Made by a program: the position numbers and the translations under genes. The notes under the pieces are model-generated. The model was not told where the DNA came from, ran no database searches, and saw only the letters and a program-made list of their open reading frames with translations. Source: Bacteroidales bacterium (GTDB taxonomy: Bacteria > Bacteroidota > Bacteroidia > Bacteroidales > VadinHA17). Taken from it: a stretch of DNA of 56,183 nt. The stretch spans positions 1-56,183 of the forward strand of contig JALVJE010000209.1 of NCBI GenBank assembly GCA_027028505.1, in the 5' to 3' direction. Position 1 is the stretch's first letter, and every line of letters begins with the position of its first letter. Positions 238-25,602 of this stretch are shown piece by piece.

Positions 238-860
238 AAGGAAGGTCGAATGGCGAACAGTGGAAAGAGTCAGCGATGAGAGATGAGTGATGAGTGATGA
301 GCGATGAGTTAATGAGCGCAAATACCGGAAGGGACAAGGCACCGCCTTGTCCGTCTATCGGTAAGAAAATGTAGTAAGGAGTAAGGAGCGATGAATGGCG
401 AAGGTCGAATGGCGAACAGTGGAAAGAGTCAGCGATGAGCGATGAGCGATGAGTTAATGAGCGCAAATACCGGAAGGGACAAGGCACCGCCTTGTCCGTC
501 TATCGGTAAGAAAATGTAGTAAGGAGTAAGGAGCGATGAATGGCGAAGGTCGAATGGCGAACAGTGGAAAGAGTCAGCGATGAGCGATGAGCGATGAGTT
601 AATGAGCGCGAATACCGTAAGGGACAAGGCACCGCCTTGTCCGTATGTTGGTAAGGAAATGTAGTAGGGAGTTATGAGAGATGAGTGATGAGTGATGAGT
701 GATGAGCAATGAGTTAATGAGCGCGAATACCGTAAGGGACAAGGCACCGCCTTGTCCGTATGTTGGCAAAGAAATGGGATAAGGAGTAGGGAGCGACGAA
801 TGACGAATGTCGAACACCGAACAACGAAGGTCGAATTCGAATTGAAAGAGAGGCTGCCGT
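238..860. repeat. Tandem array of four REP-like hairpin units (periods 145, 145, 115 bp) with heptamer linkers
   Basis: GGACAAGGC-ACC-GCCTTGTCC starts at 332, 477, 622 and 737, each within GAGTTAATGAGCGCRAATACCGKAAG...CCGT. Linkers are GAGCGAT/GAGTGAT and GAAGGTC/GAATGGC-type heptamers. Confidence 0.9.
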
Positions 861-929
861 TGGCTCATTCTTTCCCGGTCTCCGCCGGTTTTGAATTCCC
901 GAATTTGGAGACCTTCAGGGCCGGCTACC

Positions 930-1508
930 CTATTTCCCTTTTCTTCCGCGGCGGAACAGACGGGGCCTTAACAACGAGGGGACCGTTTCGGGGAAGATCC
1001 CGCTCTTCACATACCGGATATCCTCCACCGAATAGAAAGCCTGGGAATTGTATTTCTGGATCAGTTCCAACAATGCCGGCATACTTTTTCTTCCGGTCAC
1101 AGAGTAAATAATATGAACAGGACCGTGGATACCATTGGCCTTCACGGAAGTAACCCCATATCCGTGTTCGTGAAGCTGTTCGATAAGCAGTGCCGCATCT
1201 TTCTGGGTAATAATGCGTATGAGCTGTGTACCCAGGGCCACCTTCTCTTCCACCAACATCCCCACATAGTTACCGGTGGCAAAACCGGCCGCAAAGGCAA
1301 TGTAACAAGCCGGGTTATTGAGGTTCTGGAAGATCCTGCTGATCGCCAGGATCCAGATCAACACCTCGAAAAAAGCCAGGAATGGCACGACATTACGCCG
1401 CCCTCTGGAGATAAGGATGATACGCATGGTCCCCAGCGTAACATCCACGATACGTGCCAGGAAGATCAGCAAAGGCAACAGTATGTATGAAAACCACCAT
1501 GCATCCAT
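930..1508 (-). CDS. UPF0316 / DUF2179 family membrane protein
   Basis: 192 aa with hydrophobic N-terminal half (IFLARIVDVTLGTMRII, FFEVLIW, FAAGFATGNYVG) and a C-terminal soluble domain (GYGVT...G..GPV.II). Confidence 0.85.
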   Translation of the reverse strand: MDAWWFSYILLPLLIFLARIVDVTLGTMRIILISRGRRNVVPFLAFFEVLIWILAISRIFQNLNNPACYIAFAAGFATGNYVGMLVEEKVALGTQLIRIITQKDAALLIEQLHEHGYGVTSVKANGIHGPVHIIYSVTGRKSMPALLELIQKYNSQAFYSVEDIRYVKSGIFPETVPSLLRPRLFRRGRKGK

Positions 1509-1595
1509 GTCATAATGTCTTTATGGTTTCTGTCCCCTTGCCCTTAACAAATAGAATACCATACCGGACCAATACGGCAATGAAAAGTCAAAAAG

Positions 1596-1860
1596 TAAGA
1601 AAAGTGGGAACCTCCTTCGATACGCCTGCGGCTACTCAGGAACCTCCTTCGATACGCCTGCGGCTACTCAGCGATGAGAGATGAGCGATGAGCAATGAGA
1701 GGTGAGCGATGATTTGATGAGCGTGAATACCGTGAGGGACAAGGCACCGCCTTGTCCGTCTATCGGTAAGGAAATGCAGTAGGGAGTTATGAGCTATGAG
1801 CTCCGCCTTCGCTAATCCCGATAGCTATCGGGATCGGCGGACGAAGGATGAGTTGATGAG
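1596..1860. repeat. Composite intergenic repeat: module B twice, module A, module C
   Basis: Exact 32-bp tandem GGAACCTCCTTCGATACGCCTGCGGCTACTCA at 1607-1670; module A hairpin at 1737-1757; module C TCCGCCTTCG-CTAA-TCCCGATAGCTATCGGGA-TCGGCGGA from 1802; GAGCGAT-type linkers between them. Confidence 0.85.
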
Positions 1861-1950
1861 CGTGAATACCCCTATATTACCAAACTATTCCTTATTTTTG
1901 GCATAGTGGTACCGCAAAGCCCATCCATAAAATGTAGATCAACAGGTTCA

Positions 1951-2116
1951 ACCCAGATTACGCATTAGGAAGCTAAAAAATAGCTGAACTAATGCGTTAG
2001 CTGGGGTTAACCCCGATCTAGGAGTTCACGGTTTTGGTGAATAGCCAAAACCGATGAAATCCTTAATCGATCAGCAATGAAAAGCGCTTGCGATTTTCTA
2101 TTGCTGATTTTGGGTT
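1951..2116. mobile_element. About 165-bp MITE-like, multi-hairpin element, copy 1
   Basis: Near-identical inverted copy at 43845-44008; short imperfect terminal inverted repeats AACCCA...TGGGTT; three internal stem-loops and a central GGGGTTAACCCC palindrome; no ORF. Confidence 0.6.
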
Positions 2117-2149
2117 CAATAAAAACGAAACAAAAACATAAGTGGTGCA

Positions 2150-3115
2150 ATGAAAAAAATATTCCCGGTGATGATCCTGACCCTTACCATGGCTGTTCTG
2201 AGCAGATCAGCTATCGGTGAAAGACACTACCCTTCCGGTGGAGCCGTGAACGGCTCACTGACGGTCGACGGGATCCAACGAACTTATTATCTCTATGTTC
2301 CGGAAAAATATACAGGCAGGAAATCCGTTCCGCTGCTGATCGTTCTGCATGGCGGAGGAGGCAGGGGAAAAAGGACGGAAGAAAAAACGACCCTCAACGG
2401 ATTCGACCGGCTGGCAGATAAGGAGGGATTCCTGGTCGTTTATCCGGATGCTGTGGAGTATCACTGGAACGACGGGCGGAACAACCCCTATTCCTATGCA
2501 GCCCGGCAAAACCTCAACGATGTAAAATTCATCTCTGCCCTGATCGATCACCTGGGAAACAAATACAACCTGGACCCAAAAAGGGTCTACGCCACGGGGG
2601 TCTCCAACGGCGGGATGATGAGCTTTCGCCTGGCCTGCGAGCTGCCGGACAGGATCGCAGCGATCGCCACCGTAGCCGCTTCCATGCCGGAGACTTTGTA
2701 TGACCATTGTACCCCGCAACACCCAGTTTCCGTATTGATCATACACGGCACGGATGACCCGCTGGTTCCGTGGAACGGAGGGGATGTGGTGGCTTTCGGA
2801 CAGCACCGCGGCTCCGTTGTGCCGGTCCCTCAAAGTGTTGAATTCTGGGTAAAACATGACCATTGCACCCTGCAGAAAGGGAAAACATGGCTGCCGGACA
2901 AAGATCCCCTGGACGGGACAAGGGTGTGGAAAGAGATGTATATCAACAGGGACGACAAGGTAAAGGTCGTGTTCTACGGGATCGAGGGCGGCGGTCACAC
3001 CTGGCCGGACGGCTTCAGCAGCCTCCCCCGTGTCACAGGAAAGATAACGCACGACATCAATGCCTGCAGGGTGATATGGGATTTTTTCAGGGAGGTGGGA
3101 AAAATAAATAAATAG
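2150..3115 (+). CDS. Secreted PHB-depolymerase / LpqC family alpha/beta-hydrolase esterase
   Basis: Signal peptide; PLLIVLHGGGG, YPD, nucleophile elbow TGVSNGG, HGTDDP and GGGHTWP motifs. Confidence 0.85.
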   Translation: MKKIFPVMILTLTMAVLSRSAIGERHYPSGGAVNGSLTVDGIQRTYYLYVPEKYTGRKSVPLLIVLHGGGGRGKRTEEKTTLNGFDRLADKEGFLVVYPDAVEYHWNDGRNNPYSYAARQNLNDVKFISALIDHLGNKYNLDPKRVYATGVSNGGMMSFRLACELPDRIAAIATVAASMPETLYDHCTPQHPVSVLIIHGTDDPLVPWNGGDVVAFGQHRGSVVPVPQSVEFWVKHDHCTLQKGKTWLPDKDPLDGTRVWKEMYINRDDKVKVVFYGIEGGGHTWPDGFSSLPRVTGKITHDINACRVIWDFFREVGKINK

Positions 3116-3169
3116 GTATTTAAATATCTATTTAAATAGGCATTTTAATAGGTATTTAAATAGGTATAT
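3110..3169. repeat. Five tandem 12-bp quasi-palindromic units (AAATAGGTATTT family)
   Basis: AAATAGGTATTT AAATATCTATTT AAATAGGCATTT TAATAGGTATTT AAATAGGTATAT; homologous inverted copy at 21785-21844. Confidence 0.8.
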
Positions 3170-3435
3170 TTAAGGAACGATGAAGGATGAACGATGAATG
3201 TAGAACATCGAACACCGAACACCGAATTTTGAATTCTGATTGCTGATTTTTCAATCATTCAATCATTCAATCATTCAATCATTTCCCTCCCCTGCATCTT
3301 GATCCTCTCTTCAAGCCCCGGCAAGCCATCGGCCGCCAAAGGCGGTTACTGAGTAGCCGTAGGCGTATCGAAGGGAGCCGACGGCGCTGCCGGGATCTCC
3401 GCTTCGCTCCGACTTCGCCATTCGAGCATCGCACT
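3170..3435. repeat. Composite intergenic repeat (heptamers, TCAATCAT octamers, nested hairpin with module B)
   Basis: GAACGAT/GAAGGAT/GAACACC heptamers; TCAATCAT x4; reverse-complement module B at 3349-3374 inside a longer stem (3317-3394). Confidence 0.75.
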
Positions 3436-5199
3436 TCATTTCAGCAACCCTGCCAGGGCTTTGCCGATGCGTTCGTAGCCGGTGGCGTTGGGGTGCAGGC
3501 CGTCGGCGGTGAAGGCTGCCGGATCGACGGTGCCCTGTTTGTTGAGCAACCCTGCGCCGACATCCCCGTACTGCACGTTCATGTCTCCGGCCAGGCGGGC
3601 GATCTTCAGGTTCAGGGCTTTGATGCGCTCCTCGTGGCCCTTCCAGGGCAGGATGCCCAGCAACAGGATGTCCGCATGGGGCTGGTGCAGCCGCACATCC
3701 CTGACCAGAAAGTCCAGCCCCCGCAGGATCTCCTCATCATCGTCGCGGAAGAAATTGTTGACGCCTATGAGCAGCACCACCTGTTTGGCTTGGTAACCGT
3801 CCAGCTCGCCGTGGTTGACGCGCCACAGGACGTTCTCAATACGGTCCCAGCCACAACCCATGTTCTTCACCCCTTTGGGTGCAAGATAACGGTCCCAGGC
3901 CTTCGGACCCCGTTGAAATTTACATCCCGGCACACCTCCCCAAAAATGGGTGATGGAGTTGCCCAGGAAGACGATCCGGGGTGGGTCGGTGGCATTCTCT
4001 TTCAGGATCCGTTCATGCCGTTCCTCCCATACATAATTCTTCGGCTCGCGGTCCTGGGTTACAGGGGTAGTAGCAGGGGTATTGCCGGCAGGTGCCTTCA
4101 TGATCCGCCGTATGATATTTTCATAGGCCCGGGCATAGTATTCCATCCCCAGGGCATTGGGATGGATGCCATCGGTCTGGCTGTCGAGGTCCTGACCGAT
4201 CTCCTCCTTTGTGAGCAACCAGATGTTCATTATCCCGGCCGCTTTCATCTCCGCAAAGGCCTGCTCCATCACCCGGTTGATGTCATCATAATTCCTGAAG
4301 CGGCCCGGACGGATCTCTCCGTCTGTATAGCCGTCATGTTCCACCAGGAGGATAGGTGTTTCCGGATGTTTTGCCCGGAGACTCTCCACCGAGGCGATGA
4401 TACGGTCGTGTACCTCTTTGTCCGTGAAGCGGGGAGCGGTCATATTGGGAAGACAGTCGAGAACATAAAGACCGGCATCTATCTCATTGATCAGGTCGAT
4501 CAGTTCTTTTTCCAGCTTGCCATTGCCGGAGAATGCCAGGTTGATCACGGGTCGGTCGAGACGGCGTTCCAGCAGGTTGCTCCAGGCCAGTCCGGCCCTC
4601 GGAGCACAGGCGCCCTGCGCGATGGAGGTGCCATAGACGACGATGGGTTTCTCGCGACGCAGGGGCAGCGGCTGAAAAAGAGCCGTACCGGGCATGCCTA
4701 TCTCAAGCCATTTCACATGGTTGTACAACGGCAGGTACAGGCGGTACTCCCGGCCCATTTTATGATACGCATCATTGGTACGGATCCCTTTGTACTCATA
4801 CCGGATGGTATCCCCGAAATGGTAACGCCCCCGCACCCACATCCACCGGCCCTCGCTGTCGCGGGCATACAGGTCGATGCCGCTGACGCCGGTGGCCGGC
4901 ATGTGGGGATAGGCCATTGTGCCGCTCACCCCGTAACGGATCACAAAATGATCCGCATTGCTGCGGAAACGGATCACCAGGCCGGCAGCATCTTTGGAAA
5001 GATCCCACACCGGCTTGCGCACATTTGCTTTGGCACGCGCCGGCAACCGGTCATAAAAATCTTCCGTCTCCCCCGCCCAGGCCTGTCCTTCGATCACGGG
5101 AAAAGCATTCTTTGCCGGATCCCACCAGCTCAGCCCCTCCTGCGAAAAGAGGGGAAGGGAAAAAAGCAGGGATAAGAGGAGAAGGGTCAGGGGTTTCAT
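3436..5199 (-). CDS. Secreted tandem SGNH/GDSL esterase (GxDLY-type N-terminal domain plus two SGNH domains)
   Basis: Start reassigned to ATG 5199 (MKPLTLLLLSLLFSLPLFSQ signal peptide). Contains GIDLY, block I YGTSIAQG with DGIHP, and a second block I LGNSITH with DGLHPN. Confidence 0.85.
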   Translation of the reverse strand: MKPLTLLLLSLLFSLPLFSQEGLSWWDPAKNAFPVIEGQAWAGETEDFYDRLPARAKANVRKPVWDLSKDAAGLVIRFRSNADHFVIRYGVSGTMAYPHMPATGVSGIDLYARDSEGRWMWVRGRYHFGDTIRYEYKGIRTNDAYHKMGREYRLYLPLYNHVKWLEIGMPGTALFQPLPLRREKPIVVYGTSIAQGACAPRAGLAWSNLLERRLDRPVINLAFSGNGKLEKELIDLINEIDAGLYVLDCLPNMTAPRFTDKEVHDRIIASVESLRAKHPETPILLVEHDGYTDGEIRPGRFRNYDDINRVMEQAFAEMKAAGIMNIWLLTKEEIGQDLDSQTDGIHPNALGMEYYARAYENIIRRIMKAPAGNTPATTPVTQDREPKNYVWEERHERILKENATDPPRIVFLGNSITHFWGGVPGCKFQRGPKAWDRYLAPKGVKNMGCGWDRIENVLWRVNHGELDGYQAKQVVLLIGVNNFFRDDDEEILRGLDFLVRDVRLHQPHADILLLGILPWKGHEERIKALNLKIARLAGDMNVQYGDVGAGLLNKQGTVDPAAFTADGLHPNATGYERIGKALAGLLK

Positions 5200-5232
5200 A
5201 TAGAATAATTTGTTAAAAGGATTTACTGTCAG

Positions 5233-5253
5233 GGACAAGGCATTGCCTTGTCC
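5233..5253. repeat. Single REP-like module A hairpin
   Basis: GGACAAGGC-ATT-GCCTTGTCC, same stem as module A with a different loop. Confidence 0.85.
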
Positions 5254-5330
5254 GTACAGTATGGAATAAAGATATGGCTTAATATAAATAGTTTGTGGTT
5301 CATCGATCGCCATTCATCCTTCGACCTTCC

Positions 5331-5747
5331 TCATTCCCCGATGATCTTCACCAGTACGCGTTTGCGGCGTTTGCCGTCGAACTCGCCATAGAAGACCTGC
5401 TCCCACGGTCCGAAGTCGAGACTACCGTCGGTGACAGCGATGACCACCTCGCGTCCCATGATGGTGCGTTTCAGGTGGGCATCGGCATTGTCCTCAAAGC
5501 CGTTGTGACGGTATTGTGAATAGGGTTTTTCCGGTGCCAGCTTCTCCAGCCACACTTCAAAGTCGTGGTGCAGGCCGGGCTCATCATCGTTGATAAAGAC
5601 GCTGGCCGTGATGTGCATAGCATTGCACAGCAGCAGGCCTTCTTTTATGCCGCTCTCGCGCAGGCATTCGTTCAGCTGCGGCGTGATATTGATCAGCTCC
5701 CGCCGCTTGCTGGTCTCAAACCAGAGTTCTTTTCTGTAACTTTTCAT
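5331..5747 (-). CDS. yjbQ: YjbQ / UPF0047 family protein
   Basis: 138 aa with [18 protein letters not shown] and [15 protein letters not shown] motifs. Confidence 0.9.
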
Positions 5748-5754
5748 AGCTTCA

Positions 5755-6019
5755 GTTATTAGTTCACAGTTCAGAGTTCACAGTCCCGCAGTTCCCGGGA
5801 TTTGATCCCGCTGGAACTGCGAGGATCCTCGAAAAACTACGCAAATCAAAGATTTGCTGTTTTTCGGGATTCACAGTTCACAGTTCACAGTTCAGAGTTC
5901 ACAGTTCACAGTTCAGAGTATCGAGTTTTGAGTATCCCCGTCCGACCGGACAGTCGTCCGGGCGGGGAGTATCGAGTTGGTGGTTCGTGGTTAGTGGTTA
6001 GTCGTTCATCGATCATCGT
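5755..6019. repeat. Composite intergenic repeat: AGTTCAC/AGTTCAG heptamers, module D (5783-5870), module E (5936-5967)
   Basis: Module D is near-identical to 10222-10309. Module E reads CCCCGTCCGA-CCGGAC-AGTC-GTCCGG-GCGGGG. Confidence 0.85.
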
Positions 6020-8641
6020 TCATCCTTCTGCCAGCCCCATATCTTTCTTTATGGCTTCGATCTTCTGCACCAGTTCCGCATCCATCCTGTCAAAGTCGGC
6101 GGGGTCTTTCAGCTCCCCTTTGACACTGAAATAGAACTTGATCTTGGGTTCGGTCCCCGAGGGGCGCACCGATACCTTTGAGCCGTCGTGCAGGATGAAC
6201 TGCAGCACGTTGGATCGGGGCAGGGTGATGTGATAGCGCAGGTCGGAGATCAGATCGATGGTCTGCTGTTTCAGGTAATCGTGGATGAGCATCACGTTGG
6301 AACCGTTGATGGTCTGGGGATAATGGCTGCGGAAGTTATCCATCATGGCCTGGATCTCTTCGGCCCCTTTCTTGCCCTTGCGCACGATGTTCAGCAGGTC
6401 TTCCCGGTAAAAGCCGAACTGCACGTAAATATCTTTCAGCAGGTCGAGGAGGCTCTTCCCCTGGTCTCTGGCCCAGGCGGCGGTCTCGGCCACCATCACG
6501 GCTGTGCTGACGGCGTCCTTGTCGCGCACGAAGTCGCCCACCATGAAGCCGTAGCTCTCCTCGCCCCCACCGATGAAGGTCATCTTCCCCTCATTGCGGC
6601 GGATAACGTCGGCGATCCATTTGAAGCCTGTCAGCACATCGAAATATTTCACTCCGAAGTGCTTTGCAATATCAGCTAGCAGATCGGTGGTCACGATGGT
6701 CTTGACAATATACTCTTTGCCGGTCAGTTTTCCTTTCTCCTGCCAGCGCCGCAGAAGGTAATAGGTGAGCAGGGTGGCGGTTTGGTTGCCGTTGAGGAGG
6801 CGCATGGCCCCTTTGTCGTCGCGCACGGCGATACCCAGGCGGTCGCCGTCGGGGTCGGAGGCCATCACCAGCTCGGCGCCGGTCTCGTCGGCTCTCTTCA
6901 GGGCCATCTCCAGGGCGGCATGCTCCTCGGGGTTGGGTGACACCACCGTGGGGAAGTTACCGTCGGTAATGTCCTGCTCGGGCACGTGGATGATATTCTT
7001 AAATCCGTAACGCTCCAGGGCCGTGGGCACCATTTTCACCCCGGTGCCGTGGATGGGCGTGTAAACGATCTTCAGGTCGCTGTGTTTTTTCACGGCCTCC
7101 GGCGACAGGGAGAGGGAGGTCACCTCTTTCAGGTAGGCCTCGTCCACCTCTTCCCCGATGATCTTTATCTTCTCTTTGGGTCCGTCGAACATCACCTGGG
7201 AAGGATCCTTGATGCGGGCTACCTCGGCGATGATCGCTTTGTCGTGGGGGGGGATCACCTGGGCGCCGTCTTCCCAATAAGCTTTGTAACCGTTGTACTC
7301 TTTGGGGTTGTGCGAGGCCGTGATCATCACGCCGCTCTGGCAGCCCAGATGGCGTATCGCAAAGGAGAGCTCGGGCGTGGGACGCAAGTCGTCAAAGAGA
7401 AAGACCTCAAAACCGTTGCCGGCAAAGATGCCGGCCGTCGTCTCGGCGAAGAGACGGCTGTTGTTGCGGCAGTCGTGCGAGATGACCACGCGGATGACCT
7501 CACGGCCGGCAAACTGTTTCTTCAGGTAGTTGGCCAGGCCCTGTGTGGCCATACCCACGGTATAGATGTTCATCCGGTTGGTGCCGGCGCCCATGATGCC
7601 GCGCAGGCCGCCCGTACCGAACTCCAGATGTTTGTAAAAAGCATCAATGAGCTGGTCGGGGTCTCCGTCCAGCAGTGCCTGCACCTCCTTTTTGGTCTGT
7701 TCGTCGTAAGGACCTTCCAGCCACTCGCGGGCTTTGGCCTGCACCTGTTCCAGTAAATTATCTTTTTCCATATCTGTCGTTATTAAATTTTTCAAACATT
7801 TCCGTAATCCCTCTTTCCAGTGAGGTATCGTGATCCCGTAATCCTTTTTGATCTTCTCCTTCGCCAGCACGCTGTAAAAGGGACGTGGTGCCGGCCGGTT
7901 GAACTGTTCCGACGTAACTGCCAGCACGGGTATTCTCTTCCCTGCCGTTTCCAGGATCTCTTTTGCAAAGTCGTACCAGCTGCAGACCCCCTCATCGGCA
8001 TAATGATAAATGCCGGGCTTCCATCCCCCTTTCTCCTCAGCCCTGTCGATCACCTGTAGGATGGCTTCCGCCAGGTCGCCGGCATAGGTCGGCGAGCCGA
8101 TCTGGTCATAAACGACCTCCAGGGCCTCCCGCTCGTCCGCCAGCCGCAGGATGGTCTTTACGAAATTACTGCCCTCCTCGGAGTACAGCCAGGCGGTACG
8201 TATCACCAGGGTGTCGGAATACTCCAGGGCGATACGTTCCCCTTCGTACTTGCTCTTGCCATACACCGACCGGGGATCTGGACGGTCGCTCTCGCGATAA
8301 GGCCGGTAGCTCGTCCCGCTGAAAACATAGTCGGTCGAGATGTGGATCAGCCGGAAAGGATGCTCGTGCGTGACCGCCAGCAGATAGGCCACAACATCGG
8401 CATTGAGCAGGAAAGCCCGGGCCGGCTCTTCCTCGGCCCTGTCCACGGCCGTATAAGCCGCACAGTTGATGACATAATCGGGGCGCTCCTGCAGGAGGAA
8501 AGCCATGACTGTCTCCCGGTCGGTCAGGTCCAGCTCACCGATATCGGTAAAGAGGAATTGCCAGCGGGGCCGGCGCTCCGAGGCCTTCCTCAGCGCACTG
8601 CCCAACTGTCCGTCCGCACCGGTGACGAGGATCTTTGGCAT
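6020..8641 (-). CDS. rfbD-pgm: Single 873-aa ORF: dTDP-4-dehydrorhamnose reductase (RfbD/RmlD, about aa 1-290) fused to phosphoglucomutase/phosphomannomutase (internal ATG at 7771)
   Basis: N-terminal part has TGADGQLG, NCAAYTAVD, ISTDYVF, YGKSK and RP..S.L. C-terminal part has LEFGTGGLRG, phosphoserine loop TASHNP, metal loop DPDGDR, GEES and RPSGTEPKIK. No stop codon at the junction (KCLKNLITTDMEKD). Confidence 0.85.
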   Translation of the reverse strand: MPKILVTGADGQLGSALRKASERRPRWQFLFTDIGELDLTDRETVMAFLLQERPDYVINCAAYTAVDRAEEEPARAFLLNADVVAYLLAVTHEHPFRLIHISTDYVFSGTSYRPYRESDRPDPRSVYGKSKYEGERIALEYSDTLVIRTAWLYSEEGSNFVKTILRLADEREALEVVYDQIGSPTYAGDLAEAILQVIDRAEEKGGWKPGIYHYADEGVCSWYDFAKEILETAGKRIPVLAVTSEQFNRPAPRPFYSVLAKEKIKKDYGITIPHWKEGLRKCLKNLITTDMEKDNLLEQVQAKAREWLEGPYDEQTKKEVQALLDGDPDQLIDAFYKHLEFGTGGLRGIMGAGTNRMNIYTVGMATQGLANYLKKQFAGREVIRVVISHDCRNNSRLFAETTAGIFAGNGFEVFLFDDLRPTPELSFAIRHLGCQSGVMITASHNPKEYNGYKAYWEDGAQVIPPHDKAIIAEVARIKDPSQVMFDGPKEKIKIIGEEVDEAYLKEVTSLSLSPEAVKKHSDLKIVYTPIHGTGVKMVPTALERYGFKNIIHVPEQDITDGNFPTVVSPNPEEHAALEMALKRADETGAELVMASDPDGDRLGIAVRDDKGAMRLLNGNQTATLLTYYLLRRWQEKGKLTGKEYIVKTIVTTDLLADIAKHFGVKYFDVLTGFKWIADVIRRNEGKMTFIGGGEESYGFMVGDFVRDKDAVSTAVMVAETAAWARDQGKSLLDLLKDIYVQFGFYREDLLNIVRKGKKGAEEIQAMMDNFRSHYPQTINGSNVMLIHDYLKQQTIDLISDLRYHITLPRSNVLQFILHDGSKVSVRPSGTEPKIKFYFSVKGELKDPADFDRMDAELVQKIEAIKKDMGLAEG

Positions 8642-8659
8642 AAAAAGTTTTATTCATTA

Positions 8660-8667
8660 CAAAGGTA
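8660..8667 (-). promoter_or_regulatory. Bacteroidota -7 promoter box for rfbD-pgm
   Basis: CAAAGGTA reads TACCTTTG on the minus strand, 19 nt upstream of the ATG; matches TAnnTTTG. Confidence 0.6.
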
Positions 8668-8673
8668 GTAAAA

Positions 8674-10157: not shown

Positions 10158-10345
10158 AGTTCATAGTTCATAGTTCAGAGTTCAGAGTTCAGAGTTCAGA
10201 GTTCAGAGTTCACAGTTCACAGTCCCGCAGTTCCCGGGATTTGATCCTGCTGGAACTGCGAGGATCCTCGAAAAACTACGCAAATCAAAGATTTGCTGTT
10301 TTTCGGGATTCACAGTTCAGAGTTCAGAGTATCTGGTTTTGAGTT
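10158..10345. repeat. Composite intergenic repeat: AGTTCA(T/G/C) heptamers plus module D
   Basis: Heptamers begin just after the GH130 stop. Module D at 10222-10309 differs from 5783-5870 at one base. Confidence 0.85.
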
Positions 10346-17755: not shown

Positions 17756-17800
17756 GATGTTTTGATGATATTAATTTTTTGTAAGTAAGAAAAAAATATT

Positions 17801-20128
17801 CTACAATGTATTTTCACCGATGGAAATTTTTCCTGTGAGCAGGTCCTGGTCCCTCGAGGAAGATCCTACCATAATGGTAAAGACGCCAGGCTCGACCACA
17901 TAATGGTCATCGGCATCATAATAACCCAGCTCCCGGACGGGCAAACGGAAAACGACCTTCTTCCTCTCCCCTGTTTGCAGATGGACCCTCCTGAACCCTT
18001 TCAGTTCTTTCACCGGACGTGTTGCCGAGGAATAATCATCCCTGATATAAAGTTGTACGATCTCATCCCCGTCCATGCTCCCTTTGTTGGCCAGCCGCAC
18101 GCTCACTGTGATGGTATCCTGCAGGCCGGCCTTTGCCGGCAGGTCCAGGCCGGAATAGGAGAAATGCGTATAGCTCATCCCCTGTCCGAAACTCCACAGC
18201 GGTTTCGAAGGAATATCAATGTACTGGTGCAGGTAAGCCGAGGGAAGATAGTTGTATACCATGTGTACCTGGCCCACATCCCAGGGGATGGTAACGGGCA
18301 GTTTTCCGGAGGGATTCACCGTTCCCTTCACTACCTCTGCGATGGCCTGTCCGCCGAAGGCGCCTGGTTCCCAGGCCTCGATGATGGCAGGGACAGTCCT
18401 TTTGATCCAGGGCTCGGCCAGGGGCCGGCCATTGATAAAGACCACCACCACATTTTTGTTTCTCTTATAGATCTCCTTCACCAGCTTCAACTGGTTGCCC
18501 TGCAGATCGATGTGGGCCCTGTCCACATTCTCTCCGCAATTCTTTTCCTTGTTGTCATAACGCAGGGAGTTGGATCCTACCACGACCACCACTACATCAT
18601 AGGAAGCCGCGCGTGCAATGGGAGCTTTCAGCTTCGAATCATCGGGATAACGCAGGCTCTCGCCACTGTTGATAAAGTCCACCCGGGTACCGGCAAAGAC
18701 CTTTTTCAACCCTTCATAGACCGTGGTCACATGCTCTTCGGGTTGTTGCAGGGCCCAGTCGCCCAGGAGGCGATGATTGTTGGCATTGGGACCTGTCACA
18801 AGGATGCTTTTCACGTTCTTCAGCGGCAAAAGACCTTTGTTTTTCAGGAGGATGACCGATCTTCGGGCCGCTTCGAGGGCCAGTTGCTGATGCTCCGGCG
18901 TGAAAAGGGCCTCCTCTGCCTTCTTCTCATCGCACAACGGTTGTTCGAAAAGACCCAGCATGAATTTGGCCTGCAGGATCTTCCGTGCAGCACGGTCAAT
19001 ATATTTCTCATCCAGGCGGCCTGTCTCGACCGAGTTTTTCACCGATTCCAGAAAACCCGGTCCGTGCATATGCATGTCCATACCCGCCTCAATAGACTCA
19101 ATGTAAGCATCCGCTATGGTGGAAGCCGCATGATGCAGCGTATGGATCCTTTCTATGTCCATCCAGTCGGACACGACAAAACCGTTGAAACCCCATTCGT
19201 TGCGCAGCACGTCGGTGAGGAGGAATTTGTTCTTATGGGCAGGCGTCCCGGACACCTCATTGTGGGCGGCCATGAAGGTATAGACCCCGGCCTCCACCTG
19301 TGCCCGGAACGGGGGGAACCAGAGGTTACGCAGCCGCCGTACCGATGCATCCAGGGGGGCAGCGTTCAGTCCGTTGAAAGGCTCCCCGCCTCCTACAAAA
19401 TGTTTGGCGCAGGCGATGACATTGTCTTTGCCCATATCGCCCTGGTACCCTTTGGTAAAAGCTGCCCCCATGGCAGCCACCAGAAAGGGATCCTCGCCGA
19501 AGGTCTCACCGGTGCGGCCCCAGCGCGGGTCGCGTGCCACCTCCACATTGGGCGAGAAGGTCCACTGCATCCCTGTAGCCCGCATCTCCTGTGCCGTCGC
19601 CACAGCAATACGCCGGGCCAGCGCCGTATCCCAGCTGCTGGCCAGCGCCAGCTGGGTGGGATATACCGTCGCCCCATAGATGAGCGCATCTCCGTGGATG
19701 GCATCGATACCCAGAAGAAGAGGGATCTTCAAACGTGAGGCCATAGCCAGCCGCTGCAACTCATTGGCCTCCTTCACATCTTTCACATGCAGGAACGATC
19801 CGATCTTCCCCTCCTTCACCATATTCTTCAGATCCTCCGTGCTCAGGCCGGGATACATGCCGTACTGGTCATCCCCTTTCTTCAGTTTATGGGTCTTGCG
19901 GTACTGCTCTTTGGTTTTCCGGATATGCTCCGGCGCTACGAACTGGCACATCTGACCGATCTTCTCCTCCAGGGTCATCCGCTGCAGCAGATCCTCCACA
20001 CGCCGGTCAACAGAAAGGGAGGGATCCAGATAGGCAGGTGCGCCACCTTTTTCCGGCTGCGAAGAGGTACAACCTCCCAGAAAAAGGATCGTACCTGTGA
20101 TCAGTAAAGAGAACAAAGTATTCTTCAT
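17801..20128 (-). CDS. Glycoside hydrolase family 3 (BglX-like beta-glucosidase) lipoprotein
   Basis: Lipobox LGGC; MTLEEKIGQ, RDPRWGRTGETFGEDP, CAKHF, nucleophile motif VVSDW, SGKLPVT, FGQGMSYT and FN3-like EIVQLYIRD...PVKELKGF. Confidence 0.92.
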   Translation of the reverse strand: MKNTLFSLLITGTILFLGGCTSSQPEKGGAPAYLDPSLSVDRRVEDLLQRMTLEEKIGQMCQFVAPEHIRKTKEQYRKTHKLKKGDDQYGMYPGLSTEDLKNMVKEGKIGSFLHVKDVKEANELQRLAMASRLKIPLLLGIDAIHGDALIYGATVYPTQLALASSWDTALARRIAVATAQEMRATGMQWTFSPNVEVARDPRWGRTGETFGEDPFLVAAMGAAFTKGYQGDMGKDNVIACAKHFVGGGEPFNGLNAAPLDASVRRLRNLWFPPFRAQVEAGVYTFMAAHNEVSGTPAHKNKFLLTDVLRNEWGFNGFVVSDWMDIERIHTLHHAASTIADAYIESIEAGMDMHMHGPGFLESVKNSVETGRLDEKYIDRAARKILQAKFMLGLFEQPLCDEKKAEEALFTPEHQQLALEAARRSVILLKNKGLLPLKNVKSILVTGPNANNHRLLGDWALQQPEEHVTTVYEGLKKVFAGTRVDFINSGESLRYPDDSKLKAPIARAASYDVVVVVVGSNSLRYDNKEKNCGENVDRAHIDLQGNQLKLVKEIYKRNKNVVVVFINGRPLAEPWIKRTVPAIIEAWEPGAFGGQAIAEVVKGTVNPSGKLPVTIPWDVGQVHMVYNYLPSAYLHQYIDIPSKPLWSFGQGMSYTHFSYSGLDLPAKAGLQDTITVSVRLANKGSMDGDEIVQLYIRDDYSSATRPVKELKGFRRVHLQTGERKKVVFRLPVRELGYYDADDHYVVEPGVFTIMVGSSSRDQDLLTGKISIGENTL

Positions 20129-20296
20129 AATTCAATTTTTTGTCTTGCCTAAGTGTTGCATTTTTTAAAACAGTGAGCACGCATAACAAGGGATCATAAG
20201 CGGCGCAAAATAATAAAATTCACAGAAAGAAATATCATGATGGACATGATAAAGAAAGAACCTCCCGGCATAAAAGATTTTTTTATTTTTATGTGC

Positions 20297-21463
20297 ATGG
20301 AAAGAGCGTTTCAACCTGTTACCCTCGGGCCGCTGACGCTGAAGAACCGTTTCATCAAATCGGCCACCTACGAGGGATTTTTTGATGAGGGCATGCCCAC
20401 GCAGGGTCTCACGGACCATCATGCGGCGCTGGCCCGGGGGGGTGTAGGCCTGACCACTGTCTCTTACGGGGCGGTGTCGCCGGAGGGCCGTACCTTTCAC
20501 AATCAGATGTACATCCACGAAGGCACCCTGCCGGCCCTGGCCGGGGTGGCGGAGGCCGTGCACCGCGCCGGCGTGAAGATCTCCATGCAGCTTACCCATT
20601 GTGGGTTCTTCACCAAGAACAAAGAGGCTGGCAAGCCACTGGGACCCAGCCGTCTGCTCAACCAGTACGGACTGCTCAACGGCCTGCCTTTCTCCAAAGA
20701 GATGGACCGTGACGACATGGATCGGACGGCCGGACACTTCGCCCTGGCTGCAGAGCGCCTGGCCGGGGCCGGCTACGATGCTGTGGAAGTGCACATGGGC
20801 CACGGCTACCTGCTGAGCCAGTTCCTCAGCCCGGCCACCAACCGGCGAAAAGATGCATACGGAGGCCCCATTGCCAACAGGGCCCGTTTTCCGCTGGAGG
20901 TGTTCCGGCAGGTGAAAGAGCGCGTAGGCCACCGCCTGGCCGTGCTGGTCAAGCTGAACATGTCCGATGGCTTCCGCGGCGGTCTGACAGTGGAGGAGAG
21001 CAGCTACGTGGCCCGGGAGCTGGAGCGGCTGGGGGCCGACGCCCTCGTGCTGACAGGAGGATTTACCAGCAAGACCCCTTTCTACCTCATGCGCGGCGAG
21101 GTGCCCCTGAAAGGCATGATACAGAACGGCGAGAACGCAGCCGAAAAGATCTCCATGGCCCTCTTCGGGCCGCTGATCGTTAAAAAATATCCTTTCACGC
21201 CCCTCTTCTTCCTCGACCAGGCCCTGCAGATACGACGGTCGGTGAAGATGCCCCTGGCATACCTGGGCGGTGTGGACGGCCGGGAGGATATCTCCCGCCT
21301 CATGGATGCCGGTTTCGACCTCATCGCCCTGGCCCGGCCTCTGATCCACGACCCGCAGTTCTTGCAAAAGCTGCAGAGAGGAGAGATCGACCGCACCGCC
21401 TGCGACCGCTGCAATGAGTGTGTCGTGGAAATGGACCGGGGAGGAGTGAGATGTGTGAAGTGA
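20297..21463 (+). CDS. NADH:flavin oxidoreductase (Old Yellow Enzyme family)
   Basis: Start reassigned to 20297 (MERAFQPVTLGPLTLKNRF). QLTHCG, EVHMGHGYLLSQFLSP.TNRR.D.YGG...NRARF, LARPLI and a C-terminal CDRCNEC cluster motif. Confidence 0.88.
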   Translation: MERAFQPVTLGPLTLKNRFIKSATYEGFFDEGMPTQGLTDHHAALARGGVGLTTVSYGAVSPEGRTFHNQMYIHEGTLPALAGVAEAVHRAGVKISMQLTHCGFFTKNKEAGKPLGPSRLLNQYGLLNGLPFSKEMDRDDMDRTAGHFALAAERLAGAGYDAVEVHMGHGYLLSQFLSPATNRRKDAYGGPIANRARFPLEVFRQVKERVGHRLAVLVKLNMSDGFRGGLTVEESSYVARELERLGADALVLTGGFTSKTPFYLMRGEVPLKGMIQNGENAAEKISMALFGPLIVKKYPFTPLFFLDQALQIRRSVKMPLAYLGGVDGREDISRLMDAGFDLIALARPLIHDPQFLQKLQRGEIDRTACDRCNECVVEMDRGGVRCVK

Positions 21464-22105
21464 GAAGGCAAAAGTAATCCGACTTCGTCCCGGTACACCG
21501 GGACTACGTCGGACGAGGAAAGGCAGAAGGAAGGATGAAGGATGATCGTCGAAGGTCGAATGTCCAGGAGTCAAAGAGTGGAAAAAGTATGAAAAGTGGG
21601 AAAAGAAAGATATGACCTATAAGTCCTTCGATACGCCTTCGGCTACTCAGGAACCGGTGTTGAGTAGGGAGTAGGGAGTAAGGAGGAGGGAGGAGCGATG
21701 AGCTCCGCCTTCGCTAATCCCGATAGCTATCGGGATCGGCGGACAAAGGATGAAGCGATAATGCGAAAACAACTCCAAACTCAGATATAGGTATTTAAAT
21801 ACCTATTTAATTACCTATTAAAATACCTATTTAAATAGGTAGATCTGAAATTAAAATCAGAAGTCAGTGCCTCTTTGCGGAACTTGGCGGAATCTTCGCG
21901 TACCTTTGCGTATCAGCATGATATACACTCATATAAGCTATTACGCAAAGAGTTGCAGTGTTGCACGCAAAGGTCCGCAAAGGAAGTTAGTTTGTAGTTT
22001 GAGGTTTGTAGTTTGAGGGAGCGCCGTTTCAAGCATTCAAGCATTCCCCGTCCGAACGGCCTCGGCCGGGCGGGAATCATTCAAGCATTAAATTCTTTCC
22101 CTCCC
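21464..22105. repeat. Large composite intergenic repeat: modules F, B, C, 12-mer array, G, E with heptamer/octamer linkers
   Basis: F at 21478-21516, B at 21625-21655, C at 21704-21744, 12-mer x5 at 21785-21844, G (CTTTGCG.../...CGCAAAG arms) at 21873-21982, E at 22046-22074. Confidence 0.85.
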
Positions 22106-22111
22106 GGCACC

Positions 22112-24364
22112 CTAATGAAACCAATACGACACCTTCACCACCAGGGCCCGGTTCTTGTTGATGAGGCCTTCGGGGGTGGCATTGCTCGTATAGACGATGT
22201 ACAGGTCGGAGACCGGGGCAAAGCGCCACTGAAAACGCAGGTTGACGTTGATGTTGTCGATCTGGTTGTTGTACTGCACATAGGTCGTAAAGAATACCTT
22301 GTCGGTAAAAGTGATGTCCAGGCGGGGCCCCACCAACCACAGGTCGGCGCTGGTGTAAGGCTCGGGCAGGACGATGTGGTTCCAGGTGGTCACCATGGCA
22401 AAGTTGACCCAGGGCTGCCAGCGGTAGCCTGCCATGCCTTCCGCGTGAAGGCGGGTGCCGTTGAAGTATCCGCCGTATCCCCCGCTGAGCGCCAGGTTGA
22501 AGAGTTTCCGGGGATCGGAGTTCCATTTTACCTGGAAATTGTTCCAGTGATGATCGCTCCCGGCGGGAAGGGGAACGCCTCCCGTATTCGTCGGATCGAA
22601 AGGTTGGGTCAGGAGGATATAATGGTCTTCCACCGATACGTTGAGTTTGCTGCGGTTAAGCCACTCGACCCCGTATCCGACGGAGAGATTGCGGTCGGTC
22701 GGTTTGCCATCGGTATCAAAATAGAAAAAACCCATCAACATCGGACCGTGGTTGGCCACCTTTTCCGAGGAAGGATAAAATTTATATCCCACGGCCGGCA
22801 CCAGTGAATAATACCCGTTCCGCGGGACATAACCGGTCTCGGCATAATAGTTGGAGCCCACCCAGGCCTGGGCAAGCCCCAGGGTCAGATGCCGGGTATT
22901 GTACTGTATCTCAGCCCCTGCTGCCGAAGCTTTGCGGGTGCTGTCCTGCTGGAAGGCATGATGTATAAAGAATTTCCCGGTCCAGCGGCTGTCCTCGCTG
23001 GCCAGGTTGTACTCCACGCCGGCCACCCGGTTGTATGGACTGCTACTCACCGTATCTGCCGAAGGGCCTGTCAGCTGCCTGTTCACCAGGAAAGCGGTGA
23101 TGTTGGAACGGCTGAAGACATTGTACTGCCACGCTGCCACAAAATAGTTGGCCGGCAGCATGTTCGTAGCGGCCGGCGCCGGCTCCTCCGGCGCCTCCAC
23201 CGGTGTGCTGAGCGTGGGGGTCCAGCCCCCGGGGCCTACGGTCTGCATGTCCATCACACCGATGCGGTTTTTGTTGTTGATGTTGCCGCTGAGGCGCCCG
23301 CCGGCGATCACCGGCTGGTCCAGACCGATACGCCTTGAGAAAAAGGGTCGTATCGTCTTGGTGCCCAGGTTGGCAAAAAGATCACTGTTCTCGAGGAAGA
23401 ACTGCCTTTTCTCGGGGAAGAACAGCTCGAAACGGTCGAGGTTGGTCACCTGCTGGTCCACCTCCACCTGCGAGTAATCGGGAGCGAAGGTCAGGTCGAG
23501 GTTCATCGAGGGGGCGGGCGTGATCTTGGCATCCATGCCGACACCCAGCGAGCCGAAGGTGGAGGCGTATTTCTCCGGGTCGCGGACGGCCTTGCCCATG
23601 GTGTAAGGGATGAGGGAATAGTTCACCCCCGGCGGCGGCAGGGGCTCGTCGAAGATGAGACTGCCGGTGAAGGCCAGGTTGGCCGACTGAAACTGCCGCG
23701 GCACGGGCGCCCAGCTCGACTTCTCATTGGTCTTCAGATCGAGACGGCTGAAATTGATGCCCCAGGTCTGTGATCCTTTGCGGTAGCGGATGCTGTGAAA
23801 AGGAATGGCAAACTCCGCCACCCAGCGATCGGGATAGCTCTTCAGCGCCGACCGCCATTTGCAGTCCCAGTTGAGGGAGACGTATCCCCCGTTGGCCTGG
23901 GTACCGTCCCACTGGGCCCCGGCAGCAGAGATGCCGAAGGAAAAACCGTTGGTAAAGTCATTGTAGGTATCCATGAAGATCAGGAAGTTGTCATTGAGGG
24001 GGAATTTGAAATCCCGGCGCAGCGACTCTACCGGCCTTTTCCCCGGCGTGGGATCAAAACAGACGATCGCAAAATAGAGGTTCTTGTTATCGTAGGTGAC
24101 CCGCACCTCGGTCTGCGCTTTGGCCAGACCCGTGTCGATCGGCAGGATACGGAAGAAATTCTCCGCCACTTCGGCCTTTTTCCAGCAGGGTTCGTTCAGC
24201 ACCCCGTCTACGACCACCGGCTGCCGCGTCTTATGTACATGCAGGACATATTTCTCCCGGTTGACCTGCCCTGTGAGAGAGGAAGAAAAAAAGAACAGCA
24301 GTAACGCTGTATAAAAAAAAGGCAGAGCCGGAGCTGCAGCAAAAGATCTTCTGAACATGAACAA
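22112..24364 (-). CDS. CBM9-like plus DUF5916 domain protein (probable outer-membrane protein)
   Basis: Signal peptide; VVDGVLNEPCW, W.AEFAIPF.SIRY, WGINF.R, NLDLTFAPDYSQVEVD, LFFPEKRQFFLEN and FFSRRIG; aromatic C-terminal strand. Confidence 0.8.
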   Translation of the reverse strand: MFMFRRSFAAAPALPFFYTALLLFFFSSSLTGQVNREKYVLHVHKTRQPVVVDGVLNEPCWKKAEVAENFFRILPIDTGLAKAQTEVRVTYDNKNLYFAIVCFDPTPGKRPVESLRRDFKFPLNDNFLIFMDTYNDFTNGFSFGISAAGAQWDGTQANGGYVSLNWDCKWRSALKSYPDRWVAEFAIPFHSIRYRKGSQTWGINFSRLDLKTNEKSSWAPVPRQFQSANLAFTGSLIFDEPLPPPGVNYSLIPYTMGKAVRDPEKYASTFGSLGVGMDAKITPAPSMNLDLTFAPDYSQVEVDQQVTNLDRFELFFPEKRQFFLENSDLFANLGTKTIRPFFSRRIGLDQPVIAGGRLSGNINNKNRIGVMDMQTVGPGGWTPTLSTPVEAPEEPAPAATNMLPANYFVAAWQYNVFSRSNITAFLVNRQLTGPSADTVSSSPYNRVAGVEYNLASEDSRWTGKFFIHHAFQQDSTRKASAAGAEIQYNTRHLTLGLAQAWVGSNYYAETGYVPRNGYYSLVPAVGYKFYPSSEKVANHGPMLMGFFYFDTDGKPTDRNLSVGYGVEWLNRSKLNVSVEDHYILLTQPFDPTNTGGVPLPAGSDHHWNNFQVKWNSDPRKLFNLALSGGYGGYFNGTRLHAEGMAGYRWQPWVNFAMVTTWNHIVLPEPYTSADLWLVGPRLDITFTDKVFFTTYVQYNNQIDNINVNLRFQWRFAPVSDLYIVYTSNATPEGLINKNRALVVKVSYWFH

Positions 24365-24494
24365 AAATTATCAGGAACGAACAGGTACCGGAATACAAGT
24401 ATAAGAAAATAACACAACATTCCATTTCCTCAGAAAATAAAAGCACACTCACAATAACAAATTAACATATCCTGATTTTCATTATCTTTGAATT

Positions 24495-24812
24495 ATGAAA
24501 ACCAGTAACAGACATATCAGCAATCTGATCAGAAAATATGTGTCTGAAATTGATCCCGAAGCTGAGGTGATCTTGTACGGCTCCCGCGCCAGAGGTGATG
24601 ACCACAAAGATTCTGACTGGGATATCCTTATCCTCACCCTTTATCCTGTGGATCCTGAAACAGAACGGCAGTTCATACATAAGCTTTATGATCTGGAACT
24701 AACTACAGGAGAGTCCTTTTCAGTATTTGTCTATTCAAAGAAAGAATGGAATGAAAAACACAGGATCTCTCCATTCTATCACAACGTCCGGAAAGAAGGG
24801 ATCAGATTATGA
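24495..24812 (+). CDS. Minimal nucleotidyltransferase (MNT) antitoxin
   Basis: 105 aa with ILYGSRARGD...SDWDILI (GS-x10-DxD). TATCTTTG box at 24483-24490 immediately upstream. Confidence 0.85.
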   Translation: MKTSNRHISNLIRKYVSEIDPEAEVILYGSRARGDDHKDSDWDILILTLYPVDPETERQFIHKLYDLELTTGESFSVFVYSKKEWNEKHRISPFYHNVRKEGIRL

Positions 24813-24850
24813 CTCATGAAGAAAGAGCGGAATATGTCAGATACCGGATT
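24809..24850 (+). pseudogene. Truncated 5' remnant of a HEPN-domain toxin
   Basis: ATG overlaps the MNT stop (ATGA). MTHEERAEYVRYRI resembles the first helix of HEPN proteins paired with MNT; similarity ends after about 14 codons. Confidence 0.6.
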
Positions 24851-24875
24851 CGTTGGCCATCATCATTTTACAGTA

Positions 24876-25196
24876 ATGAAAAGAGTAAAGCTTATCATTT
24901 TCTCTTTCGTGCTTTTCACTCCTCTCCTTTTGGGGACAGACTGACAAGTATCAACTTGCTTTCGAAGGAGGCCCGGCCCTGACCTTCCTGCGGGGATTTG
25001 ACAAGCTCAAAGAGGCTACCGACCCCACTGTCAATTTCTCTTTCGGGGCGACTTTTCAGTATGCCGCGTCTCCCGGAACAGCTTTACGCACCGGACTGCT
25101 TTTCCTTCTCATCCCTATCTCACCAATTCAACGAACTTTATGGTCGGCTTTGTCTTTGACTTGGGAAAAGAAGAGAAGGGGAGCGATGAGCAATGA
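24876..25196 (+). pseudogene. Degraded outer-membrane beta-barrel (porin/PorT-like) gene
   Basis: Signal peptide MKRVKLIIFSFVLFTPLLLG, then a frameshift into GQTDKYQLAFEGGPALTFLRG...FSFGATFQY...LRTGLLF, then a jump to a C-terminal-like strand TNSTNFMVGFVFDLGK; the interior is missing. Confidence 0.55.
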
Positions 25197-25602
25197 GCTA
25201 TGAGTAAATGAGAAAGCATTTCTTTTGCCCTTTCAGGGCTTTAAAAGTGTGGAATTGAAAAGAAGTTAAAATCAGAACACTTTGCGGAACATGGCGGAAC
25301 CTTTGCGCAGCTTTGCGTAACAGCAGATACACATTCATTTCGCTGTTATGCAAAGAGCCGCAGAGTGGCACGCAAAGGGCCGCAAAGCATACGGACAAAG
25401 CGGTGCTTTGTCCCTTACGGTATTCGCGCTCAATAACTCATCGCTCATCGCTGATTCCTGAGTAGCCGAAGGCGTACCGAAGGAGGTTCCACTTTTCGAC
25501 CCTTGGACCTTCGACCTTCTACGATCATCCATCCTTTTGCCTTCAGCCTTTCCTCGTCCGACGTAGTCCCGATTATTGGGACGAAGTCGGATTACTTTTG
25601 CC
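25181..25602. repeat. Composite intergenic repeat: G, then reverse-complement A, B, F
   Basis: G at 25280-25387; A variant GGACAAAGC-GGT-GCTTTGTCC at 25393-25413; B at 25455-25490; F at 25554-25591. GAGCGAT-type repeats on the left and ATCGCTC repeats on the right. Confidence 0.85.

Follow-up and report, generated by a model that had tools for sequence, protein, structure and literature searches.

Hairpin modules on an ordered backbone of heptamer arrays form a mosaic of repeats in the intergenic spacers of an uncultured Bacteroidales bacterium

Introduction

The window analyzed here is a contig of 56,183 nucleotides (C209) from the draft genome of an uncultured Bacteroidales bacterium (G000; 3.38 Mb, 275 contigs, 53% G+C), and four of its intergenic spacers reuse the same short hairpin modules, named A, B, C and F, with homologous linkers between them. 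The question raised by these loci is whether they descend from a single composite element that is copied whole, from unrelated repeats that happen to share permissive spacers, or from smaller parts that combine according to rules of their own. A sequence-only reading of the window had described the modules and linkers of the four loci, all of which we found where it had placed them, including the linkers AAAAGTGG(G)AACCTCCTTCG, GAGTTAWTGAGCGCRAATACCG and GGCAAAAGTAA; it took the loci for variants of one composite, non-autonomous unit of ~0.4-0.5 kb with the module order F-B-A-C.

Here, we report that the ordered element is a backbone of heptamer arrays, in which the hairpins sit in preferred slots. 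The resulting mosaic is a variation on known repeat DNA, namely repetitive extragenic palindromes (REPs), bacterial interspersed mosaic elements (BIMEs) and BOX elements, and not a new kind of system. We consider it probable that the spacers hold a BIME/BOX-like mosaic of GTAG-tagged mobile hairpins and of heptamer arrays that change by slippage, probably driven in trans by Y1 transposases of the HUH type.

Materials and methods

The gene calls for G000 are our own rough set (2483 genes, 87% coding sequence), and the intergenic fraction of the genome is ~13%. Modules were mapped by direct reading of the four loci and by iterated nhmmer searches over the genome. The profile of F drifted during these searches (132 raw matches, 104 once overlaps were merged), and its matches are counted as 'F-like' and not as F. 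An exact pattern for the frame hairpin, the wider class to which F is assigned below, gave 53 matches in G000 against none in a reversed control; a looser expression gave 265 matches against 187 in the reversed-genome control, and only a specific subset of it was used.

Six array tokens were defined for the study of order, namely h1 (AAGGCAR), h2 (AAGGATG), h3 (GTCGAA), h4 (AAAGTGG), h5 (GMGATGA) and h6 (GGAGTAR), and the hairpins were tokenized alongside them. An all-versus-all comparison of spacers was dominated by an unrelated miniature inverted-repeat transposable element (MITE) of ~180 bp; only one internal pair, on contigs C215 and C262, was relied on, because some of the long matches touch contig ends and may be assembly overlaps. 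In a census of 14-mers, nearly all spacers of the window proved to consist of words that recur in the genome. A search of the whole window against Rfam at gathering thresholds returned no match.

Results

Order, strand and position of the modules

The genome contains 1122 arrays with a 7-nt period. The linkers between the hairpins are heptamer arrays of this kind, and they are themselves ordered, with the backbone running AAGGCAR > AAGGATG > GTCGAA > AAAGTGG > GMGATGA > GGAGTAR. The sequence-only reading had proposed setting module-order transitions against shuffled orders, and this comparison gave a clear result: along the series F/E > h1 > h2 > h3 > h4 > B > h5 > A > h6, 306 same-strand transitions run forward and 76 backward (281 and 69 once the window contig is left out), while shuffling the tokens within chains yields a forward share of 0.50 +/- 0.02, with a maximum of 0.59. 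When the unchanged tokens were applied to 28.6 kb of the sister genome G001, 34 transitions were forward and 17 backward, against 0.50 +/- 0.05 in shuffles.

Considering the hairpins only, B precedes A in six cases out of six, with a homologous linker, and in four out of four outside the window. F precedes B in four cases and follows it in three, and A is followed by C only once in the whole genome, at 1717-1839 of the window, so that F-B-A-C is not a genome-wide rule. What stands of the order first proposed is thus its non-randomness and the position of B before A.

Of 16 pairs of neighboring hairpins that differ in type, 14 have both members on one strand. A same-strand stop codon precedes 129 of the 172 chains that contain two or more kinds of token (75%; p = 3.5e-11), with a median distance of 21 nt from stop codon to chain; the remaining quarter is placed differently, in part on the promoter side of genes, as at 1596-1860. 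Together, the rules of strand and stop codon may point to a constraint or a use at the level of the transcript. Coding potential of the arrays was considered and rejected, since a 7-nt period cannot code.

Hairpin families

Genome-wide, the nhmmer searches found 110 copies of B on 58 contigs, 104 F-like matches, 38 copies of A (18 of them full length) and 15 of C. Among the module matches of at least 30 bits, all but 7 lie outside gene calls. Because the copies of A, B, C and F extend over dozens of contigs, a single local segmental duplication with no other copies, the counter-explanation that the sequence-only reading had named for itself, is excluded.

Folding as single-stranded DNA, compared with shuffles, was significantly better for three modules, with z-scores of -4.05 for A, -2.95 for F and -1.8 for C. 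Fifteen of the 18 full copies of A have GMGATGA heptamers and the linker GTTAATGAGCGCGAATACCG upstream, and GGAGTAR heptamers usually follow; the two stem alleles of A, AAGGC/GCCTT and AAAGC/GCTTT, represent a compensatory change. F is one form of a 'frame' hairpin, TCCGNC-TTCG-x-CTAC-GNCGGA, in which x denotes an inner part. In 21 aligned copies of the F frame, 95% of the cells in the two helices are paired and three pairs are changed on both sides, a value reached by none of 500 shuffles. Apart from F, the inner part of a frame may be 'empty' (CCAAGG and the like), the core of C, or one to three copies of B in the loop, and about 25 frame hairpins hold B in this nested manner.

B consists of a small stem between the conserved flanks CCTTCGRTAC and TACTCAGGAACC. 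Within it, only the mini-stem of 3 bp shows compensatory variants (GCC..GGC, GCT..AGC and GTC..GAC), and some copies carry longer stems in its place, one of which is F-like. Elsewhere B repeats itself in pure tandems (33-nt period, up to six copies), and at least four unrelated contexts contain it, among them the loops of two different hairpin families. Over all families, copies mostly stand alone or in tandems of one type (B x2-6). The flanks of B were examined for a target site or a target-site duplication and showed none, and no terminal inverted repeats of the kind expected of a MITE bound the composite. A CRISPR array was considered for the B tandems and rejected, their 33-nt period being devoid of spacers.

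The hairpins had been assigned to the GTAG-tagged REP type from the window alone, and the genome bears this out for part of the families: of all tetranucleotides found 5' of perfect intergenic stems, GTAG shows the strongest enrichment, with 80 occurrences against 24 expected. The tag is present in F (bottom strand), in empty frames, in B (GAGTAG-CC) and in two further hairpins, R4 and R5. On the bottom strand of F, GTAG is followed by a stem of 6 bp (GTAG-TCCCGG...), a layout like that of GTAG-tagged REPs (PMC3733652).

Another tetranucleotide, CGTC, ranks third: directly 5' of perfect intergenic stems it occurs 63 times where 21 are expected, an enrichment of about three-fold. CGTC is the other tag, that of a second REP superfamily (PMC3733652), and because of this match a CGTC-type REP family may also exist in G000.

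Turnover and spread among relatives

The genes of G001 are 93-96% identical to those of G000, and the orthologous spacers are very different. The spacer orthologous to 21464-21750 lacks F, carries a different GTAG hairpin (GTAGAGACGCGC...) and at least three copies of B, and keeps the backbone. The orthologue of 238-860 (contig C164 of G001) contains one B-A pair, where the window has A four times without B. Elsewhere, F is a clean indel between the two genomes (C243), an outer frame that is the same in both encloses B in G000 and, in G001, a GCTCC-AAA-GGAGC hairpin, which amounts to a cargo swap (C146), and the modules of C100, C187, C216 and C234 are absent from G001. Arrays expand and contract between the two sister species. 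Gain, loss and duplication of modules, as claimed from the window, can therefore be seen directly between orthologous spacers, and the view of the four loci as variations on a common modular system whose linkers are homologous is upheld.

The longest multi-module copy that we found is a composite of 366 nt, 92% identical between C215:3650-4010 and C262:18870-19240. It contains heptamer arrays, a cluster of R1 hairpins, an extended stem with an F-type frame inside, and one hairpin each of the GACCCC..GGGGTC, GTCAGGTAG and G kinds, after which the heptamer series restarts. From this copy and from the differences between the spacers of G000 and G001, it follows that movement or exchange affects stretches of several modules as well as single ones.

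Among 40 relatives, only G001 has A and standard B in numbers. The B pattern occurs 102 times in G000, 95 times in G001, 14 times in G010 and 4 times in G003, where the central stems are others. The frame pattern is older: four members of the genus have 53, 38, 18 and 11 matches and other genera a few, with no match in controls.

Candidate enzymes and their hairpins

The genome carries three Y1_Tnp loci, on C165, C75 and C175, all of them outside the window, as had been anticipated for the driving enzyme. The C165 and C75 proteins are intact, have ~150 amino acids and match PF01797 at 85 and 54.7 bits, respectively. The C165 protein scores above the NCBIfam IS200/IS605 cut-off, and the C75 protein aligns with IS608 TnpA over the HUH motif and the catalytic tyrosine. 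Both share the motif YxxNQxxHH and, going by the motif table alone, would resemble Y1 subclass 1.2 of PMC6006769, a subclass reported without REP-like partners (PMC6006769).

The C75 gene (C75:10435-10890, minus strand, 151 amino acids, motifs NHIH and YVKNQENHH) lies between inverted elements of two types, GTCAGGTAG plus a hairpin (R5) and CAACCCC..GGGGTTG (G); the arrangement is conserved on contig C211 of G001, and the gene is also bracketed by a direct repeat of ~130 nt. The hairpin CAACCCC-TCC-GGGGTTG beside the Y1 gene is intact in G000 and has a composite of ~143 nt in its loop in G001. The C165 gene lies between GCCCCGAAGGGGC-type hairpins (R1-R3). These flanking hairpins obey the order of the mosaic, with R5 before G in eight cases out of eight, G before h2, h3 or h4 in 18 out of 18 and h5 before R1 in seven out of seven, and the R5-G pair stands at the head of chains such as G-h3-h4-B-h5-A-h6 on C87. 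The sequence-only reading had suggested a search for transposase genes flanked by the modules of the window; what flanks the Y1 genes are sibling modules (R5/G and R1-R3) and not A, B, C or F. The third locus, on C175, is the only gene in G000 of the REP-associated tyrosine transposase (RAYT) type in the strict sense. An intact version of it, of 251 amino acids, is present on contig C78 of G001, with no mosaic tokens nearby.

Module loci in the window

In the first locus, 238-860 on the plus strand, A hairpins at 312-368, 457-513, 601-658 and 717-773 belong to tandem units with a 145-nt period (family D3), of which copies 1 and 2 are 99% alike. Each unit comprises, in this order, GTCGAA/AGTGG heptamers, (GCGATGA)n, GTTAATGAGCGCRAATACCG, the A hairpin and GGAGTAA heptamers, and the hairpin is GGGACAAGGC-ACC-GCCTTGTCC within an outer stem TACCG/CGGTA. 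The gene upstream ends at 237, and the array begins 3 nt past its stop codon. The second locus, 1596-1860 on the plus strand, consists of AAAGTGG heptamers, two copies of B (1613-1642 and 1645-1671), (GMGATGA)n, A (1717-1773), GGAGTTA and C (1804-1839); it lies in a promoter-side gap and, unlike most chains, has no same-strand stop codon before it.

The plus-strand chain at 21464-21750 starts directly past the stop codon of the gene that ends at 21463, with F at 21468-21523 (TCCGAC-TTCG-TCCCGG-TACA-CCGGGA-CTAC-GTCGGA). It continues with the heptamer backbone AAGGCAG > AAGGATG > GTCGAA > AAAGTGG (21524-21605), B (21624-21653), GGAGTAG heptamers and C (21706-21741). The fourth locus, 25385-25604, is on the minus strand, downstream of a minus-strand gene ending at 25689, and reads F (25547-25601), heptamer backbone, B (25455-25484), GCGATGA heptamers and A (25388-25432), the latter with the AAAGC/GCTTT stem allele.

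This inventory agrees with the earlier one, which had overlooked three further copies. A minus-strand B (3349-3374) exemplifies nesting in the loop of the second hairpin family, its frame at 3314-3417 being GCCATCGGCCGCC ... GGCGCTGCCGGG, and the same context recurs on C184, C213 and C169. The two others are plus-strand hairpins, a diverged A-like one at 5224-5266 (GGGACAAGGCATTGCCTTGTCC) and an A-like one with a true GTAG tag at 43804-43835 (TGTAGAGACAAGGCACCGCCTTGTC).

Other repeats

Several other repeats were noticed. An AT-rich, MITE-like element of ~165-180 bp with a central GGGGTTAACCCC palindrome is present as inverted copies at 1950-2116 and 43845-44013. It is the most abundant young repeat of G000, with 14-mers occurring up to 60 times and many pairs of copies 90-98% identical over ~180 nt, and its copy at ~1070-1250 of C175 interrupts the RAYT-like gene. 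AT-rich tandems with a 12-nt period (TAAATAGGTATT and variants) lie at 3105-3172 and 21785-21844, mutually inverted; their words reach 94 occurrences genome-wide, and they form a further module class at the distal end of mosaics. A two-hairpin element of 138 nt (GTCCCGCAGTTCCCGGGAT ... GATCCCGCTGGAACTGCGAGGATCCTCG) is found at 5754-5891 and 10193-10330, in copies that are 94% identical and have GTTCACA/GTTCAGA heptamer arrays on their flanks, and C131 has a copy of 219 nt at 97%. Finally, runs of short motifs of the CTTTGCG/GGCGGAA type (e.g. CTTTGCGGAACATGGCGGAACCTTTGCGCAGCTTTGCGTAAC) occur at 21870-21900 and 25280-25387, adjoining the mosaics at their far side, with words that recur 8-9 times in the genome.

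Discussion

The explanation that we favor starts from a polar backbone of degenerate, purine-rich heptamer arrays, whose changes in unit number are attributed to replication slippage. The hairpin families (F, empty frames, B, A, C, R5, G, R1 and R4) occupy preferred slots of this backbone and also one another's loops. They would be non-autonomous elements of single-strand DNA, which Y1 (HUH) transposases akin to IS200 and RAYT enzymes would mobilize in trans. Insertion would prefer exposed hairpin loops and repeat arrays, and recombination between dispersed copies, together with slippage, would spread and reshape composite stretches. The strand bias may reflect what transcribed 3' ends tolerate or find useful. 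Mobilization by Y1 enzymes is proposed because two intact Y1 genes are bracketed by hairpins of the same grammar; such enzymes acting in trans are the likely, if unproven, driver of the hairpins. For A, B, C and F, the suggested connection to these enzymes comes from the shared tag, the shared grammar and analogy, and not from adjacency.

Several observations weigh against this explanation. No A, B, C or F token lies within ~1.5 kb of the Y1 loci (three in G000 and two in G001), and the RAYT-like gene of C175 (an NF047646-like fragment; REP_Tyr_transpos) is broken by the ~180-bp MITE. The tag of A is GTAAG, GGAAG or GTGAG and not strict GTAG, C is tagless, and B folds no better than shuffles (z about 0). 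No target-site rule and no end-cleavage motif could be defined from the copies at hand. A lagging-strand bias is seen for single-strand transposition of the IS608 type; module orientation here gives no support to it, since it tracks the strand of the gene and not the GC-skew strand, h1 arrays being the exception. Moreover, the tokens and the canonical order were chosen after the data had been seen, the gene calls are rough and our own, and the draft assembly is broken up at repeats.

The idea that one composite, non-autonomous transposon of ~0.4-0.5 kb is copied whole, shorter arrangements being decayed or truncated copies, draws on the strongly ordered grammar, on multi-module stretches of 100-370 nt that are 80-95% identical between loci, and on frame subtypes that co-vary with the type of the flanking array. 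We nevertheless think it unlikely. Most copies are lone modules or pure tandems of B, the order of F and B is 4:3 and the A-C junction is unique, B recurs in at least four unrelated contexts that include the loops of two hairpin families, orthologous spacers differ by module-sized steps (an F indel, a cargo swap), and no terminal repeats or target duplications delimit a unit. On these grounds the single composite unit of the sequence-only reading is not supported in the form proposed. An origin in independent REP families and simple repeats that have piled up in permissive spacers, with order as a coincidence or as the product of local duplication, would suit the many singleton modules and the variable order of F and B. 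It is refuted by the excess of forward transitions over the 50% of shuffles (306:76), a bias reproduced in G001, and B before A at 6:0 with a homologous linker, as well as copies on dozens of contigs, also speak against it; we consider it very improbable.

A functional RNA feature would account for other aspects of the data: ordered cassettes in 3' untranslated regions, made of stop-rich purine arrays and of protective or terminating hairpins, would be kept by selection and spread by recombination without being mobile. This would agree with the stop codon that 75% of chains have upstream on their own strand, 21 nt away at the median, with an orientation that tracks the gene strand and not replication skew, and with the compensatory changes in stems. 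However, orthologous spacers of the sister species hold quite different sets of modules despite genes that are 93-96% identical, which leaves no conserved gene-specific function; one chain in four has another position, promoter-side gaps such as 1596-1860 included, no Rfam family matches, and the hairpins are without following U-tracts. We therefore judge this account decidedly unlikely. An artefact of metagenome assembly or binning, in the form of collapsed or chimeric repeats, might be suspected in a draft of 275 contigs with some repeat copies at contig ends, but intact genes flank the four loci within a contig of 56 kb, and the same families, in part at the same orthologous positions, are present in an independently assembled sister genome, which makes this hardly credible. 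A bolder version of the mobile-hairpin mosaic is also conceivable, if rather speculative. In it, the hairpins would be very small, clade-wide single-strand elements that home into hairpin loops ('Russian-doll' REPs), driven by IS200-like Y1 proteins of ~150 amino acids (YxxNQxxHH; Bacteroidota and Cyanobacteria; so far reported without a REP partner), and the heptamer backbone would be a functional grammar of 3' ends, providing stops in all frames, spacing and protection of RNA ends.

The BIME/BOX-like mosaic that we favor has clear relatives among known systems. Like the REPs, BIMEs and RAYTs of Enterobacteria and Pseudomonas (PMC2817692, PMC3733652, PMC3479197), it consists of high-copy, short extragenic palindromes, several families of which have GTAG beside the stem, forms clusters from few motifs and linkers, turns over quickly between related species and includes Y1 HUH genes that have inverted hairpins of this general kind on their flanks. 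BIMEs also have conserved linkers, yet their REPs alternate regularly in orientation, whereas the modules here run head to tail on one strand (14/16); the sequence-only reading had proposed a BIME-like system with more module types than in E. coli. Further differences from REPs and BIMEs are the many more hairpin families, the nested loops and the ordered heptamer backbone. In place of classical RAYTs, the flanked enzymes are IS200-type-like proteins of ~150 amino acids with YxxNQxxHH, and the pairing of a Y1 gene with its own REP family (the REPtron) is seen only for R5/G (C75) and R1-R3 (C165).

BOX elements of Streptococcus pneumoniae and S. suis (PMC3049150) are likewise modular, ordered and non-autonomous, and enriched downstream of genes. 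They are transcribed as 3' extensions and have no assigned transposase, and additional module types are known in S. suis (PMC3049150). Their middle module, boxB, is variable in copy number and folds independently, which recalls the one to six copies of B. Unlike the terminal boxA and boxC, which pair, no pairing end modules were seen in the mosaic, and the ends of a unit could not be defined; conversely, BOX elements lack the heptamer arrays, GTAG tags and hairpin-in-loop nesting found here. The TAACTGA arrays of Beggiatoaceae, Cyanobacteria and a few Bacteroidetes (PMC4679880) resemble the backbone in being 7-nt arrays confined to spacers, polar with respect to genes and present in hundreds per genome. 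They precede start codons, while the arrays of G000 have many unit types in a fixed order, are interleaved with hairpins and mostly lie behind stop codons.

Intergenic tandem repeats of heptanucleotides also exist in Cyanobacteria as short tandemly repeated repetitive (STRR) sequences. Elements of the IS1397/ISKpn1 type insert into REP loops and hence also target the loop of a palindrome; here, the insert is a non-coding module of 30 nt and not an insertion sequence, and the sequences are unrelated. Neisseria intergenic mosaic elements (NIMEs) are dRS3/RS mosaics whose repeat units are parted by short palindromes, an arrangement similar to the present one with unrelated sequences.

The biology of REPs and BIMEs is based almost wholly on Proteobacteria, and this work adds a case from an uncultured Bacteroidales bacterium, in which a small vocabulary, with a grammar that can be measured, makes up a large part of the intergenic ~13%. 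It provides candidate substrates (GTCAGGTAG plus hairpin, F and B) for Y1 HUH enzymes of a group about which little is understood, and a natural case of how repeat DNA invades hairpin loops, in sister species that rewrite their spacers fast. In practical terms, mosaic repeats of this kind break metagenome assemblies, with 275 contigs in G000 and 550 in G001. The mosaic also raises the question of whether repeat cassettes at 3' ends matter in organisms that are largely without Shine-Dalgarno signals and classical terminators.

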